Assembly: GCA_951406725.2 (NCBI GenBank)
Contig: OX597834.1
Coordinates: 27,094,001 to 27,158,000 of the forward strand
Reading direction: 5' to 3'
Origin: Octopus vulgaris
Lineage: Eukaryota
Length of the DNA: 64,000 nt
Shown here: in pieces, positions 22,162-56,381 of the stretch
Numbering within the stretch: the first letter of the stretch is position 1
Layout of the letters: each line of letters opens with the position of its first letter
Translations under genes and position numbers: made by a program
Notes under the pieces: generated by a model
Seen by the model: only the letters and a program-made list of their open reading frames with translations
Told to the model about the DNA's origin: nothing
Database searches by the model: none

Positions 22162-22579
22162 AGAAGGCGGCGAGCTGGCAGACACGTTAGCACGCCAGGC
22201 GAAATGCTTAGCGGTATTACGTCTGCGTTACGTTGTGAGTTCAAATTCCGCCGAGGTCGACTTTGCCTTTCATCCTTTCGGGGTCGATAAATTAAGTACC
22301 AGTTACGCACTGGAGTCGATGTAATCGACTTAATACCTATGTCTGTCCTTGTTTGTCCCCTCTGTGTTTAGCCCCTTGTGGGTAATAAAGAAATAGGTAT
22401 TTCGTCTGCCACTACATTCTGAGTTCAAATTCCGCCGAGGTCGACTTTGCCTTTCATCCTTTCGGGGTCGATAAATTAAGTACCAGTTACGCACTGGAGT
22501 CGATGTAATCGACTTAATACCTAAGTCTGTCCTTGTTTGTCCCCTCTGTGTTTAGCCCCTTGTGGGTAATAAAGAAATA
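22162..22579 (+). mobile_element. SINE family B tandem dimer within a single 13-bp TSD
   Basis: TSD GGTTACTGGTCAT at 22149-22161 and 22580-22592. The body is repeated. Confidence 0.88.
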
Positions 22580-22976
22580 GGTTACTGGTCATTTGGGTAT
22601 TTTTTTTTCTCTTTGACCAGAACGGTTAAAATGGTTATCGTTACCTTTTATCGTTTGCTTGTTGCGATCATTCTACGGTGGTCATTCTGGGTCAAAGGAT
22701 TTAGTCCAACACTTATTCTATCGGACCCTTTAGCCGAATTCGTCCAGTTACAGGGATGTAAACAAACCAACACCGGCTGTCTACCAGTGGGAGGTGGGAC
22801 AAATGCATGTACACATACAAGCATATTATTATGTGTGTATGTTTACGATGGGTTTCAACTCATTTTTTGTGCATTAAATTCACTCACAAAGCGATTGGTT
22901 GGCTCGGGGCTATAGAAGAAGACAATCCAACAGCTATGCACGCGATCTTCTGAACCACACAACCATACATACATAC

Positions 22977-37992: not shown

Positions 37993-38245
37993 TGTCCTGA
38001 TGCAGTACAAGGCAGTGGCTCTCATGCCTTCTGATCTTAACTGATTGGAAGTGTTATCATGTACATTGATTTGTCTTGGTATAAAAGATGGGCTACAGCA
38101 AATATTCTGATCAATACCACAGATTTGCTTGTCAGTTTGACCTTAACCAGTTGAGCATGTCCCTTAGTGGCTGATGATATGTGCATCTCTGATCACGAGC
38201 AGAAGTAGTGGAGGAGTATCATAGCCATGTGTTGAGAGGGATTCT
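37993..38245. mobile_element. Truncated family F copy within (TAA)n
   Basis: Matches 58697-58952. Confidence 0.85.
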
Positions 38246-38286
38246 TAATAATGATAATAATAACAATAATAATAATAATAATAATG

Positions 38287-38347
<61 letters not shown>

Positions 38348-38371
38348 TAATAATAATAATAATAATAATAA

Positions 38372-38826
38372 TAAAAGACCAAAACAATAAAGTTTGCTTA
38401 TTGATCGACATGAGCATCCCCTGTGATCATAATATCTCGGCAAAAGAGTTTGACAAGCTCAGAAAATATAAAGACCTGCTCATTGAAATTGAGAAAATGT
38501 GGCATCTCAAGGCGGTTACAATAACAGTGATTGTAGGAGCACTAGGAATGATCAAGAAGGGAACCGAAAATTATATGAGAATGATCCCTGGCTTACCATC
38601 CCTGCAAGAAGTGCAAAAGATTGTCTTAACTGGTACATCACACGTATTGAGAAGAGCATTGTCGATGTGAGAACTATTACTACCCATGTATTTTAATTTA
38701 ACTTTAAAAAAAAAAAAATGAACGAACTAGTGAGTTTAGTTTAATGGCCTACCAATGTATGCTATGAGTTTCTTTGTCCTAGGAGTCGGGAAGACACTCG
38801 GCAAGAAATGGAAGCAAATTTGAAAG
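38372..38826 (+). mobile_element. 5'-truncated R4-clade LINE (restriction-like endonuclease domain plus 3' UTR) within (TAA)n
   Basis: CLLIDMSIPCDHNI..KEFDKLRKYKDL..EIEKMW..VIVGALG..EVQKIVLTGTSHVLRRALSM*. (TAA)n lies on both sides. Confidence 0.88.
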
Positions 38827-38839
38827 AAGAAAAATAAAG

Positions 38840-38897
<58 letters not shown>

Positions 38898-38899
<2 letters not shown>

Positions 38900-39385
38900 T
38901 GACTGTCCCAATCGATATAAACGCATCTGTCAAGACCTACCAAAAGCTGAGCAAATATAAAGATCTTGAAATAGAAATCAGCAAAATGTGGAAGCTGAAG
39001 ACTAAAACAATACCTGTTGTCATAGGTGCCCTGGGAATGATAGCGAAAGGGACTAATTGCTACCTAACTCAGATACCAGGAAACCCCAAAATGGCAGAAA
39101 TTCAAAAGATAGTGCTCATGGGAACTGCTCATATCCTACGCAAAATACTCTCTATGTAATTAATCCCAAGGTTTAAAACAAACTTTTTTTTTTATGTATT
39201 TAATTTTATTTTATTTATTTATTTATTTTTTTAAATTTTATTTTTATGTATTAGACATTCACTAGTACAACACCAAAAAAAAAAAACCCAAATATATGGC
39301 ACAGAACTTCCAACCTGTTGTCTCTTGAGGTCTCTGGGTGAGACTTGGAGCCAACTTGTACAGACATAAAGCAAAAGTCAAACAG
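38898..39385 (+). mobile_element. Second, distinct 5'-truncated R4-clade LINE within (TAA)n
   Basis: MTVPIDIN..KLSKYKDLEIEISKMW..IPVVIGALG..EIQKIVLMGTAHILRKILSM*. It has a different 3' UTR and (TAA)n flanks. Confidence 0.88.
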
Positions 39386-39780
39386 AATAATAATAATAAA
39401 AATAAAAGAAGTGAAATAGAACCAGTGCGTGTGTTTATCAGTGGTATAATGACTGTCCTGATGTACAACAATATCTGTTTTAACACATGAATTCACCTTA
39501 AGAACCTTGCAAACCAAATACAAAAACGAAATACCTAAATACGTTATTTCTAAGGACACCGCGAACTCCACCTTCTACATAGCCAATACTATCAAGGCGC
39601 TTCTTTCAGATTTAATGCCTGCATGTGAGTTTACAAGGTCCCTGTCGCATCGATTACAACAGAGGCTCCGTCACTCTGTGTTATTTTACACAATTACCAC
39701 CCAACACATTAATTTAACCTATACACTACATATTATACGTTGTCAACGCACTGCTCTAACAAACGCGAGCGCGCCTGAAA

Positions 39781-40680
39781 AATATAGAACTGCACTTGGT
39801 GATGCGATTGAATCTTGTATGAAAGACATTGAACAATATCCTCTGAGGATAGCCATGAGCACGGTCTAGAAATATAGAACTGCACTTGGTGAGGCGATTG
39901 AATCTTGTATGAAAGACATTGAACAATATCCTCTGAGGATAGCCATGAGCACGGTCTAGAAATATAGAACTGCACTTGGTGAGGCGATTGAATCTTGTAT
40001 GAAAGACATTGAACAATATCCTCTGAGGATAGCCATGAGCGCGGTCTAGAAATATAGAACTGCACTTGGTGAGGCGATTGAATCTTGTATGAAAGACATT
40101 GAACAATATCCTCTGAGGATAGCCATGAGCACGGTCTAGAAATATAGAACTGCACTTGGTGAGGCGATTGAATCTTGTATGAAAGACATTGAACAATATC
40201 CTCTGAGGATAGCCATGAGCGCGGTCTAGAAATATAGAACTGCACTTGGTGAGGCGATTGAATCTTGTATGAAAGACATTGAACAATATCCTCTGAGGAT
40301 AGCCATGAGCGCGGTCTAGAAATATAGAACTGCACTTGGTGAGGCGATTGAATCTTGTATGAAAGACATTGAACAATATCCTCTGAGGATAGCCATGAGC
40401 GCGGTCTAGAAATATAGAACTGCACTTGGTGAGGCGATTGAGTCTTGTATGAAAGACATTGAACAATATCCTCTGAGGATAGCCATGAGCACGGTCTAGA
40501 AATATAGAACTGCACTTGGTGAGGCGATTGAATCTTGTATGAAAGACATTGAACAATATCCTCTGAGGATAGCCATGAGCACGGTCTAGAAATATAGAAC
40601 TGCACTTGGTGAAGTGGAAGAAGCTTGTAGGAAAGTCATTGAAGAATATCCTCTGAGGATGGCCATGAGCGCGGTCTAGA
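39781..40680. repeat. 90-bp tandem array, 10 copies (last one diverged)
   Basis: Exact 90-bp period. Units 1-9 differ mainly at one A/G site, and each unit has one XbaI site. Confidence 0.97.
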
Positions 40681-41316
40681 AAATGTTGTAGAGCTTCCAC
40701 TAGTTATGGTAAACTATACATCTTCATACCATGTATGTTAGGTAGTTAACCATACATACAAGTTTTCCTTTTCTCCATGTCACTGATGTTTATCCAAGAG
40801 AAAAGCCTGCTCTTTCGGGCCGATACAATGTGGAACCAGTTCGACCTTAGACATTGCTGTCCTAAGAACCAAAGAGATATATCATAAATCGCCTTGCTTG
40901 AAATCATTGACAGTTTCGTCAAACTACCACCCAGGATTTGAATTTTTTTTTTTTTTTTTTTGCTTTATCGGCACCGAAAGAATGACAGACAAAGTTGACA
41001 TCGACAGAATTTGACCTCAGAACGAAGAGAGTCGGAATAAATACTGCGAGGAATTCTGTCCGCTGTTCTACTGACTCGGCCATTTCGCCTTCTTCCATGA
41101 AAATGATAATGTTAGGATGTGTAAACAATGTTAGAGTGTTTACAGGTACTTATTTCATCGACGTTGAAAGGATGATGTAGAAGTCGACCGCGGTGACACC
41201 AAATTCAGGGATAAGGCTGGCAGTTTCGACTCCAGTATATGACTGGTACTTTAATTTACCGACCCCGGAAGAGGTATATAAATTTCAAAAGCAGCAGGAT
41301 TTTATAAAACGATTGA

Positions 41317-46150: not shown

Positions 46151-46757
46151 ACACGCATTCGTTTATATTCATACACTCGCATTTATATGTCTGAGATTTC
46201 TTGTATAAATACGTATAACATTAATTTCTATACCTACGGGCATATATACACATGCGAGCAAGCACACACGCGCGTACGTACACATTTGTACACCGACGCA
46301 CGTGTACGTTGGAACAAGACATTTTAGTTTTCGCAAATACAAACAAACCTGGTTATTCATACGTGCGTACACCTACACATGCCCACACATACATGCACGT
46401 GCGCGCGCACATACACATGCGCACTTGCCCGCTTAGCACCGAGCATGCATATAACACCTGCACAAACACACACACACACACAGGCATATGTGTGTGTGTG
46501 TGTCTGTATTTGTACGTGTATATATATATATATATATATTCAACAAAATATTAAGGAAAGACCCTTACAGGTCGTTCGACTCACTTGAAAAGAGCAGCCA
46601 AAACTCAAACCGCAAAAATAGTAGTAATAGTAGTAATATATATATATATACGAGAAAGAAGCAACAAGAATGGATTAGTTTTTAGTACAATTGTTTCATA
46701 CAAAGACAGGCTTTATTACAAGTTGCAAAAATTGCAGCAGATAAATTAATTGCTTTG

Positions 46758-49113: not shown

Positions 49114-49467
49114 AAATATTTTTATGATCAGTTATAATAAAAATTTAACAATATTTGATGGGTTACTCAATACTTTTGTAGATTACAAATTTATTATTTT
49201 TATACAGGAATGTTGTTGATAGTGACTCCGAAATATACATACATGCATACATACATACATGCATACATACATACATACATACATACATACATACATACAT
49301 ACATACATACATACATACATACATACATACGTACATACATACATGCATACATACATACATACATACATACATACATACATACATACATACATGCATGCAT
49401 ACACACCTACATACATACATACATATATACATACATACATACATATATACATACAGTTCGTTTGTAT

Positions 49468-49885
49468 GTATTTGGAATAGAGAAGAGAAACTGTGCACCG
49501 TTGTGGAAATTAGCTGCCCAGCAGATGTTAACATAAAGCTGAAGATCAGTGAAAAAGAGAACACCTATGCTGAACTATTGAGAAATTTGCAGTTACTCTA
49601 TCCAGATTACAAGTTCAGGTTTATACCTGTAATTATTGGGGCACTTGGATACGTAACACACTGCCTAAATACCAATCTTGAGAAATTAGGCTTCTGAAAA
49701 CCAGAAAGGAGAAAGTTAATTTCAAGACTACAGATTTAAACCATCACTGGAACTGTAAAAATCTGTAAAACTTTCCAGAAGTTTATCATTTAAATATATA
49801 TGAGCATGTTTAGATATGCAACTATATGCATGAGGATACATACATAAAACAAAACATACAAATTTGCACGTATACATACATACAT
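49468..49885 (+). mobile_element. 3' end of an RLE-encoding non-LTR retrotransposon flanked by (CATA)n
   Basis: IWNREEKLCTVVEISCPADVNI..KENTYAEL..FIPVIIGALG, then stops, a UTR and a (CATA)n tail. Confidence 0.8.
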
Positions 49886-51038: not shown

Positions 51039-51353
51039 GCACATGGCCTAGTGGTTAGAGCAGCGGACTCGCTGTCGAGGAATCGCAGTTTCGAATCTCA
51101 GACCGGACGATGTGCGTGTTTATGAGCTAAACACCTAAGCTCCACGCGGCTCTGGTAGAAGGTAATGCCGAACTTCTTCTGACTCTTTCGCCACAAACTT
51201 TCTCTCACTCTTTCCCCTTGCATCTTGCAGCACACCTGCGACAGACCGGAGTCTCGTCCAGGTGGGGAATGTATACGCCAAGGAAACCGGGCAACCGGGC
51301 AACCGGGCAACCGGCTCTTATGAGCCAGGCGTGGCTCGAGAAGGAACAAACAA
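51039..51353 (+). mobile_element. SINE family C
   Basis: Reverse-complement match to 43294-43607. Confidence 0.85.
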
Positions 51354-51662
51354 TCTATGAAAATAGTTTTTGAACATTGAATGGCTATGAGGGTTCACTA
51401 GAGTAAAATAGTAATGGAAGAGGTTCCTAAGTAAAAAATGGTTGAGATCTACTGTTCTATACTGTAACTACTGCCACGGCTATAACCAAATTGTGATTAT
51501 GTCGTTAATCTGTAAATTCCTCAGTGATTTTACTCGTTCAGTGAGATTAGGAAATCTAATTAATTGTATAATTTATAGTTTCTCTACAACACAGTGTGAA
51601 TCTAACAACAATAACATAGAAAGGATGAACGTTCGGTGTCTGAATAGACCGATAATTGTTAC

Positions 51663-51717
51663 AGTGTTTACTTCTGATGATGGGTCTCTGTGCCCGAAAT
51701 ATAAAGATTATTACATT
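51663..51717 (+). ncRNA. Canonical-core minimal type I hammerhead ribozyme, copy 1 of a tandem dimer
   Basis: CUU-CUGAUGA-U-GGG...CCC-GAAA-UA-UA-AAG, with distal stem I AGUGU/ACAUU. Predicted cut after 51703. Confidence 0.7.
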
Positions 51718-51862
51718 TACTTATTTCTCTGCATTGTAAGAAGCTCTCTGTCTTCACACGTCTTCTTAATCACGATACTCGAAGCAAGCTAAAATACTCT
51801 TCTTACAAAAAATACTACACAAAAAGAAAAAAAACCCCAAAAAAAAACGAGAATAAGCTAAC

Positions 51863-51917
51863 AGTGTTTACTTCTGATGATGGGTCTCTGTGCCCGAAAT
51901 ATAAAGATTATTACATT
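51863..51917 (+). ncRNA. Canonical-core minimal type I hammerhead ribozyme, copy 2 of a tandem dimer
   Basis: Identical to copy 1 and exactly 200 bp downstream. Predicted cut after 51903. Confidence 0.7.
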
Positions 51918-52366
51918 TACTTATTTCTCTGCATTGTAAGAAGCTCTCTGTCTTCACACGTCTTCTTAATCACAATACTCCAAGCAAGCTAAAATACTCT
52001 TCTTACAAAAAATACTACACAAAAAGAACAAAAAAAAACCAAAAAAAAAACAAAACCAGAATAAGCTAACTTCTCAGTCATCCAAATCCATACACACACA
52101 CTTAATACCCTGACAATTTTTCACTCTGATGTATTTCGTACCCCCGGTGTATGTGGTACCCGTTGCGCAATGTCAATCAATATGGCGTACTCCGGCTTGT
52201 CTTGCTTTTTTTCGCTGTTACATTTTCAGTTACCAGATATTTCCTGAAGGAACCAACTAATGGAATTCTATCGACTCAGCGACTCCTGTCTTTCTTGGAG
52301 TAAAAGAGGGAGGAGGAGCGTAAATATAGCTTCGTCGTCAAATTTGCAAAGACGTGCAATGCAGGT

Positions 52367-52423
<57 letters not shown>

Positions 52424-52607: not shown

Positions 52608-52884
52608 ATATAGATACTATACATGCACAGCCACACATACAAATACAGACATACCCCACCACACACACACACACAGAGTTTGCTGTTATGTCGAGTTATT
52701 GTAAAAACAATTTAAGATTCAGCTAATGCTTTTTGTAGAATACATATTTATTACACCTTTATAAGAAGGTCGGCAGTAACTTCGAAGTTTCACTCTGTTA
52801 GCTTTCGTCCGACGGAAGCTAGAAGACCGAATTTTCCGCGTCTCTGTCACCACTTTCTTGTAAAGGTGTAATTAATATATATAT

Positions 52885-53322
52885 TTCTTTACTGCCCACA
52901 AGGGGCTAAACATAGAGGGGACAAACAAGGACAAAGTATTAAGTCGATTATATCGACCCCAGTGCGTAACTGGTACTTAATTTATCGACCCCGAAAGGAT
53001 GAAAGGCAAAGTCGACCTCGGCGGAATTTGAACTCAGAACGTAACGGCAGACGAAATACCGCTGAGCATTTCGCCCGGCCTGCTAACGTTTCTTATTTCT
53101 TTATTGCCCACAAGGGGTTAAACATAGAGGGGACACACAGGAACAGACAAACGGAATAAGTCGATTACATCGACCCCAATGCGAAACTGGTACTTAATTT
53201 ATCGACCCCGAAAGGATGAAAGGCAAAGTCGACCTCGGCGGAATTTGAACTCAGAATGTAACGGCAGACGAAATACCCCTAAGCATTTCGCCCGGCCTGC
53301 TAACGCTTCTACCAGCTCGAGG
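52885..53322 (-). mobile_element. SINE family B tandem dimer
   Basis: Two head-to-tail units on the minus strand. Confidence 0.85.
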
Positions 53323-55248: not shown

Positions 55249-55460
55249 CAAACAGACACACATATATATAAATAAATACATACACATATACAGGCGTATG
55301 TATTTATTTATATATACGTATGTATGTGCATATATGCACGTGCATACTGATTACACACACATACATGTTATACAATGAGAGGTTCATTTTGTCATTAAAA
55401 AACACAACACGCACTGGTTATATTTCTCTTTACAATCATAATAATCATCATCATTATTAC

Positions 55461-56381
55461 TTAGTGAGAGAGCAACGCATGCCATAAAAATGACACTAGG
55501 GTACAGATATACGAAGCCCAATAAACTCATCATGCCTACCCGTGTAATAAGCGTGTACCAGGCACAAATTATCGCAAGCATATGTGCACGACATGGTGAT
55601 CTCATATCAAGGTGAACGGCGTATGACCTTGCAGGTAAGAGCCCAGTTAGAACTTTCTTCAGGTCGAGTAGCCTATTCCACCTAAAAGTTTCCTGAATAA
55701 TTGTTGTTTCCGCCTTGCTGTCACCACATTCTTGTAAAGGTGTAATTAATATATATATTTCTTTACTGCTCACAAGGGACTAAACATAGAGGGGACATAC
55801 AAGGACAAAGTATTAAGTCGATTATATCGACCCCAGTGCGTAACTGGTACTTAATTTATCGACCCCGAAAGGATGAAAGGCAAAGTCGACCTCGGCGGAA
55901 TTTGAACTCAGAACGTAAAGACAGACGAAATACCGCTAAGCATTTCGATTATGACCGAAGCCCCTACGTTTCCAGAGGTGAATTATTCACACACCAAACA
56001 ATTCCTCTCAACACATGGCTATGATGCTCCCCCACTACTTCTGCTCGTGATCAGAGATGCACATATCGTCAGCCCTTAAGTGATATGCTCAACTGGTTAT
56101 GTTCAAGCAAGTGATAAGGAAATCTGGTACTGAGGAGAATATTTGGTGTAGCCCATCTTTTATACCAAGACAAAACAATGTACACTTCCAATCAGCTAAG
56201 ATCAGAAGCCATGAGAGCCACTGCCTGGTACTGCATCAGAGTATTAGCAAATCTATGGTATTGAACGGAATATTTGCTGTAACCCATCTTTTATACCAAG
56301 ACAAAACAATGTACATGATAACACTTCTAATCAGTTAAGATCAGAAGTTATGAGAACCACTGTCTGGTACTGCATCAGGGC

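Follow-up and report, generated by a model that had tools for sequence, protein, structure and literature searches.

Does a pair of hammerhead motifs in the genome of Octopus vulgaris mark a retrozyme, an element that spreads through circular RNA, or the end of some other element that was multiplied where it lay? The window that we analysed is a stretch of 64,000 nucleotides (contig OX597834.1 of assembly GCA_951406725.2, positions 27,094,001 to 27,158,000) of AT-rich animal DNA with many microsatellites and short dispersed repeats. A preliminary description of its letters had proposed a 200-bp tandem dimer with a canonical hammerhead in each unit as a candidate retrozyme or source of circular RNA.

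The dimer consists of two head-to-tail units (Table 1). They are identical over their first 113 nt, differ at 51774 and 51781 within the next 50 nt, and show more mismatches in the A-rich tail. With 93.8% identity over 210 columns (E 7e-89) and a TRF call of period 200 with 1.9 copies, the claim of two near-identical units is confirmed. The AC that follows unit 2 repeats the first two bases of the unit, leaving a 2-nt terminal redundancy. No third copy of the unit was found within the 64-kb window. The same window contains two more dimers (184 and 217 bp; 22213-22582 and 52882-53310), neither of which carries a hammerhead. Short tandem doublets are therefore not rare here, though both of these belong to one dispersed short repeat family, with solo copies also in the window, and so do not provide an independent estimate of the rate.

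Table 1. Coordinates of the features discussed, in positions of the window
Feature	Position	Strand	Remarks
Element-derived sequence 5' of the unit, present once	51639..51660	+	putative 5' part of the parent PLE end
Repeat unit 1	51661..51860	+	200 nt, 33% GC
Minimal type I hammerhead 1	51671..51706	+	descriptor scan; matches the consensus of PMC4209133 Fig. S3
Fragment from a hypothetical double cut	51704..51903	+	200 nt; arithmetic from the predicted cuts
53-codon open stretch	51705..51863	+	weak, unproven likeness to the Penelope/Poseidon ORF N-terminal motif
A/C-rich unit tail	51807..51860	+	region differing most between the two copies
Repeat unit 2	51861..52068	+	208 nt, then AC at 52069-52070
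Minimal type I hammerhead 2	51871..51906	+	identical to hammerhead 1; predicted cut after A51903

In hammerhead 1, helix I has three contiguous pairs (CUU/AAG, 51671-73 with 51704-06) and is followed by the CUGAUGA core at 51674-80, whose second copy starts at 51874. An extra U (51681) sits between A9 and G10.1, and helix II (51682-85 with 51692-95) has four pairs, including a U-G pair, and a 6-nt loop. GAAA (51696-99), a palindromic AUAU (51699-702) and an AUA site complete the motif, which has no loop 3. A descriptor of minimal hammerheads, written after the motif had been seen, found the core, stem II, GAAA, AUAU and AUA site in each unit, as had been read by eye. It matched only these two places in the window and none in 300 dinucleotide shuffles; the exact 30-nt core likewise occurs twice in the window and in none of 100 shuffles. 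Rfam hammerhead models gave no match at the gathering threshold or at E<=10. The descriptor rejects CUGA...GAAA look-alikes at 49539 and in the 90-bp array (39780-40682). Cuts are predicted after 51703 and after 51903, an interval of exactly 200 nt, so that the release of a 200-nt product holds as a prediction.

Comparison with published hammerheads assigns the motif to a different class from the one first proposed. Here and below, PMC4209133 (Cervera and de la Pena 2014), PMC7229834 (Cervera and de la Pena 2020), PMC13282606 and Li et al. 2026 (Li, Clavereau and Pollet, bioRxiv 10.64898/2026.07.22.740005) are cited for portions of their content. PMC4209133 describes the canonical type I hammerheads of metazoans as having 6 bp in helix I and a small loop 3. 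The three contiguous pairs found here fall short of that helix I, and a helix III of 1-2 bp capped by a loop of 2-4 nt was not found, loop 3 being absent. The extra U, the missing loop 3, the 3-bp helix I and the lack of an Rfam match thus contradict the term canonical. Both units instead agree throughout with the consensus that Fig. S3 of PMC4209133 gives for the minimal hammerheads of Penelope-like elements (PLEs), "U-rich NNN CUGANGAH G...C GAAAN NU H NNN AU-rich". CUGANGA with the extra H, G10.1...C11.1 and GAAA reads CUGAUGA-U-G...C-GAAA in both; the palindromic 15.2/16.2 without loop 3, followed by UH, reads U-A then U-A; and the helix I of 3-5 bp, between U-rich 5' and AU-rich 3' flanks, has 3 bp. 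A PLE-linked Schmidtea row of the figure has the same extra U and the same U-A-U-A; the figure contains no cephalopod row, its molluscs being Lottia and Crassostrea.

Judged by its sequence, the motif is therefore a minimal PLE-type hammerhead and not a canonical one. The likeness to the minimal hammerheads of PLE pseudo-LTRs in PMC4209133 covers the extra base between A9 and G10.1, the G10.1-C11.1 pair, the palindromic 15.2/16.2 without loop 3, the short helix I and its context, membership of a dispersed, diverged family, and the need for a partner copy. The earlier description was right that a type I hammerhead of this kind needs such a copy. Unlike the elements in the cited part of that work, the two motifs here form a direct tandem at a spacing of 200 nt, without an intervening ORF, and no adjacent RT-EN frame was found.

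Coding remnants of a PLE were sought in the window. None of the 176 window ORFs searched against Pfam contained an RT or GIY-YIG domain (173 of the 176 were made up of 170 high-complexity and 3 added ORFs, from 558 of at least 55 aa). A tblastn search with 103 PLE proteins gave its best match in a decayed CA repeat at 46228-46398, extending to 46410 (E 0.009; 0.14 in the reversed window). This weak match corresponds to the PLE RT thumb region and lies 5.3 kb upstream on the same strand as the hammerhead; no other PLE parts were found in order after it. For the 53-codon open stretch downstream of the first cut, the two pairwise matches that scored best both fall on the conserved PLE N-terminal motif, with 4 of 300 shuffles as good; frame and stretch had been chosen with that motif in mind. 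Across six profile or single-sequence searches with the PLE N-terminus, its best rank was 8 of 2470 (E 6.1, not significant), and protein database and Atlas searches returned no homologue of it. A phmmer match (P0002) to a repeated-unit hypothetical protein of Trypanosoma cruzi, with 11 of 21 positions matching, was rejected, its score being inflated by repeats. At the level of sequence, the PLE N-terminal likeness of the frame is no more than a hint.

Most minimal hammerhead motifs are solo copies related to truncated PLEs (PMC4209133), and Penelope-like elements have been annotated in Octopus vulgaris (PMC13282606). Among the papers listed by our literature searches, none describes such hammerhead motifs in octopus or cephalopods. 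As no PLE reading frame was found near the dimer, we infer its PLE origin from the type of motif and from the dispersed family to which the motif belongs.

This family was traced in assembled contigs of 4 of 24 runs, aligned on 51200-52400 at 80% likeness; the copy estimates rest on the depth of assembled contigs, which is no copy number. The flanks at 51487-51609 and 52061-52347 are at single-copy depth (42-61 in run X1, 6-9 in X4, 26-49 in X5), and the bins over the hammerhead stand 10- to 25-fold above flank depth. A loop II variant (T at 51688) is present in 22, 14 and 19 contigs of X1, X4 and X5, each at about single-copy depth (57.8, 8.1 and 58.6, with flanks at 49-61, 7-9 and 31-49). 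The single-copy depth of each variant contig indicates that the core is part of an old family, dispersed and diverged, with at least tens of copies. Such a dispersed family with a hammerhead, as is characteristic of PLE pseudo-LTRs, is evident from the 14-22 contigs per DNA run that share the one variant. A change of C11.1 to U, at a CpG, was found in 12, 9 and 14 dispersed contigs, and in the recurring variant C51671T the helix I pair is preserved as U-G. Depth drops to few-fold 50-80 nt past the core and stays so in the unit body beyond about 51755, which indicates that the 200-nt body is not widely dispersed among the contigs listed.

These observations bear on the alternative that the motif comes from another, non-PLE dispersed repeat or is a chance look-alike, the dimer being an unrelated local duplication. 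The lack of PLE coding sequence at the locus in the Pfam and tblastn searches, the lack of an Rfam match and the hammerhead-free dimers of similar size in the window would all agree with it. We nevertheless regard it as very improbable given the empty shuffled windows, the complete consensus match with the extra base, G10.1-C11.1 and palindrome, and a recurring variant that preserves pairing in helix I. The preliminary description had offered a chance duplication through the 2-nt AC microhomology as its own alternative; the local duplication in that proposal fits the data better, but the motif itself is not a chance product.

Two contigs define the boundary of the parent element. Paralogous contigs in X1 (record 6) and X5 (record 22) align with 51639-51754 at 84% identity (19 differences and 1 gap in 116 columns); they are at single-copy depth and continue into 750 unrelated bases further 5'. 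The excess depth in the bin 51610-51650 corresponds to roughly 1-3 further contigs. Because the alignment begins at 51639, the family starts at least 22 nt outside the unit and the parent element is longer than the repeat unit; because it ends at 51754, the segment 51755-51860 may be flanking DNA and not part of the element. In the family, the sequence 5' of the hammerhead is not the A-rich tail of the unit. This speaks against the insertion of an RNA circle of 200 nt, since concatemeric copies of a circle would have unit tail or target DNA before them, and the sequence 5' of unit 1 is shared with the paralogs.

The length of the tandem probably varies between the assembly and other runs. Records 10 and 20 of X4/X5 connect the same upstream flank with unit 1, with 19 substitutions and 11 gap letters in 396 nt, which indicates that the locus is shared. 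At 5.1 times flank depth, a 229-nt contig (199+30; X4 record 15) makes one full turn of the unit and crosses the junction. X5 record 23, which is 140 nt long and matches unit 2 without a difference, stands at 6.5 times flank depth. From contig depth, X4 and X5 probably contain a collapsed array of about 5-6 units, probably at the same locus. Over 124 nt, the array units of X5 are identical to unit 2 (0 differences), and the downstream flank also diverges little, with 1 substitution in 294 nt. A target-site duplication was looked for and not found; the longest flank-to-flank direct repeat is 5 nt, with none at the ends.

The capability of the dimer to cleave was assessed by folding. For the two-motif transcript, the computed ensemble gives stem II a probability of 0.76-1.0 and the dimer helices I and III about 0.001 or below. 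The bipartite stem I described earlier can thus be drawn by eye, but its three proximal helix I pairs reach only about 0.001. Forcing the active dimer fold costs about 18 kcal/mol of ensemble energy in ViennaRNA, a program whose model does not cover hammerhead tertiary contacts. The circular 200-nt monomer folds at -20.0 kcal/mol with 50% of its bases paired (z -0.5; 55 of 200 shuffles as stable), and the linear monomer has a z of -0.11 against shuffles. A 76-nt stretch around the motif, with boundaries that differ from those of the -5 kcal/mol test of Li et al. 2026, folds at -9.9 kcal/mol (z -0.04), and of the hammerhead stem II alone forms. In these models, the circular monomer folds no better than chance.

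Monomers of minimal hammerheads do not cut, and dimers and trimers cut weakly in vitro (PMC4209133). On a plus-strand transcript of the dimer, the two motifs could pair through AUAU/AUAU and cut at both sites. With a helix III of 4 bp made only of A-U pairs and two helices I of 3 bp, cleavage is predicted to be weak or protein-dependent; the model thus predicts a dimer that cuts weakly if at all. A ligated circle would have at its junction the sequence found at 51903/51904 in the linear dimer, and divergent RT-PCR by itself is therefore no proof of a circle. An X9 contig alignment that ends at 51702 was considered as a sign of cleavage and rejected: an X1 DNA contig with the same variant stops there too, and the stop in X9, a run guessed to be RNA, is the end of an alignment.

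Several of these results concern the proposal that the locus is an active non-LTR retrozyme, in which the dimer would cleave itself, a host ligase would circularise the 200-nt monomer and reverse transcription would give rise to new tandems. The two hammerheads are intact and identical, while many dispersed contigs carry the C11.1-to-U change; the unit, at 200 nt and 33% GC, falls within the 150-450 bp and GC below 50% of PMC7229834; the array units of X5 are uniform; and one contig of X9 covers 51894-52211 at depth 6. The locus shares with the retrozymes of PMC7229834 a short, low-GC tandem unit with one type I hammerhead, from which a double cut would yield a unit-length RNA (here a prediction). 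The validated examples in that source, from coral, mussel and axolotl, have canonical hammerheads, thousands of copies, and highly self-paired circles that are abundant as RNA. Unlike them, the octopus dimer has a minimal motif, a unit body at few-fold depth among the contigs listed, and a fold like that of shuffled sequences. Three features tested from PMC7229834 were not found at the locus, namely a canonical hammerhead, a highly self-paired monomer and a target-site duplication over 4 bp, the last being optional in the cited part of that work. The uniformity of the X5 array is compatible with the low divergence of the downstream flank, and paralog-shared sequence, not unit tail, precedes unit 1. 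We consider an active retrozyme quite unlikely. The reading as a source of circular RNA finds no support either, given the homology 5' of the unit, the absent target-site duplication and a monomer not self-paired beyond chance.

A broader use of the term retrozyme accommodates the locus. Li et al. 2026 count as a non-LTR retrozyme any tandem with two canonical or minimal hammerheads. In their sample of 35 species (vertebrates, insects and one coral), 75% of families have at most seven units. Their matches link 21 of 57 Xenopus families to PLE ends, cleavage was seen in 1 of 9 dimers, and they propose birth by local amplification of a PLE end. At the octopus locus, two or more consecutive units stand in tandem with a complete type I motif of the minimal kind in each, and the repeat number is low, as in that work. 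The label candidate retrozyme therefore stands in the sense of Li et al. 2026, and it fails for the three features of validated retrozymes named above. Judged from its sequence, the locus is a non-LTR retrozyme in this broad operational sense only, and would work like a dimer-dependent PLE hammerhead.

The tandem could also have been made at insertion, by a PLE reverse transcriptase that copied the RNA end repeatedly, starting in the A/C-rich tail, with the number of array units changing later. This idea draws on the anole Poseidon element PAc (PMC11167929), whose ORF begins at stem II, with the cut 26 nt beyond the AUG. Reverse transcription of PAc initiates within an AC-rich loop at 111-118 nt of the ORF. 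The hammerhead of PAc requires protein for cleavage, insertion in vitro proceeds without the hammerhead, and its site does not coincide with the end of any RNA read. At the octopus locus, A9-U-G10.1 reads AUG (51680), the cut follows after 24 nt, and an A/C-rich tract closes the unit 181 nt past the AUG; the start at stem II, the cut at about 25 nt and the downstream A/C-rich tract all parallel PAc. PLE insertions are often partial tandems (PMC8557442), and the frame after the motif matches the PLE N-terminal motif in its two best pairwise alignments. The details fit less well. In the published pattern a truncated copy precedes a full one, whereas at this locus the first copy reaches further 5' than the second; the distance from AUG to unit end is 181 nt and not 111-150; and any motif of the consensus with U as its extra base contains such an AUG as a by-product. 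Unlike the intact RT-EN ORF of PAc, the AUG frame here closes after 19 codons, and the profile tests of the 53-codon frame were not significant. A tandem made at insertion therefore appears unlikely.

We consider it probable that the locus is a solo PLE end (pseudo-LTR) with a minimal hammerhead, amplified in place to a short array of variable length and weakly active at best. Under this reading, a 5'-truncated PLE insertion would have left a solo end starting near 51639. The segment that is now unit 1 would then have been duplicated and joined at the 2-nt AC overlap, giving the first dimer, and unequal exchange would have changed the array length, to two units in the assembly and about 5-6 by depth in two other runs. 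This sequence of events fits the route from PLE end to local tandem proposed in the cited part of Li et al. 2026. The dimer itself is most likely a neutral relic.

Read in this way, the dimer matters little, since minimal PLE hammerheads occur in thousands in many animal genomes and their tandem forms have already been described. It adds one probable cephalopod example of a minimal PLE-type hammerhead tandem, and a case in which the boundaries of parent and tandem can be separated, in agreement with a model in which local amplification of a PLE end gives rise to an animal retrozyme. Efficient cleavage of the dimer, with so short a helix I (3 bp) and a helix III of A-U pairs only, would raise its importance, as would a dependence of circles on array length. 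There is a slight chance that the locus is a retrozyme at birth: a duplicated solo PLE end that has kept its 5' boundary 22 nt upstream, in which tandem spacing would supply the partner motif and copy number (2 versus 5-6 units between individuals) would set the production of 200-nt circles. Such a locus would offer a natural allelic series for the step from a PLE end to a circle-producing retrozyme.

Motifs of the same type were also found outside the octopus. A scan of metagenomes gave 15 loci in 4 samples, which have no sequence in common with the octopus unit outside the core; pattern scans of viral contigs and prokaryote genomes gave 0 matches. The third pair of stem II, which the pattern does not fix, is G-C or G-U, U-A, or C-G depending on the family. 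These loci are short elements that occur dispersed, and L005 and L015 contain inverted copies; inverted truncated copies beside a pseudo-LTR are typical of PLEs (PMC8557442). Six loci (L002, L003, L004, L010, L012 and L014) represent a dispersed element of about 200 bp with a minimal hammerhead, and its copies end 108-118 nt after the core AUG, the distance at which reverse transcription starts in anole Poseidon. An inverted copy of the 3' end of this element lies just upstream of it in L002.

A further locus, L011, contains a GIY-YIG piece in inverted orientation whose Pfam match (E 0.002) does not reach the curated cut-off. A 90% identical relative of this piece retrieves 104 longer proteins, most of them with a precomputed RT domain. 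Positions 1-700 of L011 contain a frame that we take to be of the bacterial sigma-54 activator-like type; joined as it is to the inverted PLE GIY-YIG piece and a minimal hammerhead, the contig is probably chimeric. On the minus strand of L001 there are two hammerhead-type motifs that are 85% alike, the first at 1933-1969 and the second 155 nt further 5'. Their stems I and II differ and yet pair, and their helix III palindromes are CATG and TA. The second motif overlaps a 311-codon open frame, and the contig looks bacterial.

Other repeats surround the dimer in the octopus window. The array at 39780-40682 comprises ten copies of a 90-bp unit that are 97% alike, with long open frames kept on the minus strand. 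Three minus-strand segments (38236-39159, 49182-49697 and 55384-55779) resemble what we assume to be the C-terminal restriction-like endonuclease of non-LTR retrotransposons; they have no Pfam match and adjoin AAT or ATAC microsatellites. A very high-copy short repeat occupies 51200-51353, and a second repeat end, at a few hundred-fold depth, lies at 51364-51455, these repeats being 200 nt upstream of the dimer. The second presumably represents a hAT-type terminal sequence, which it resembles.
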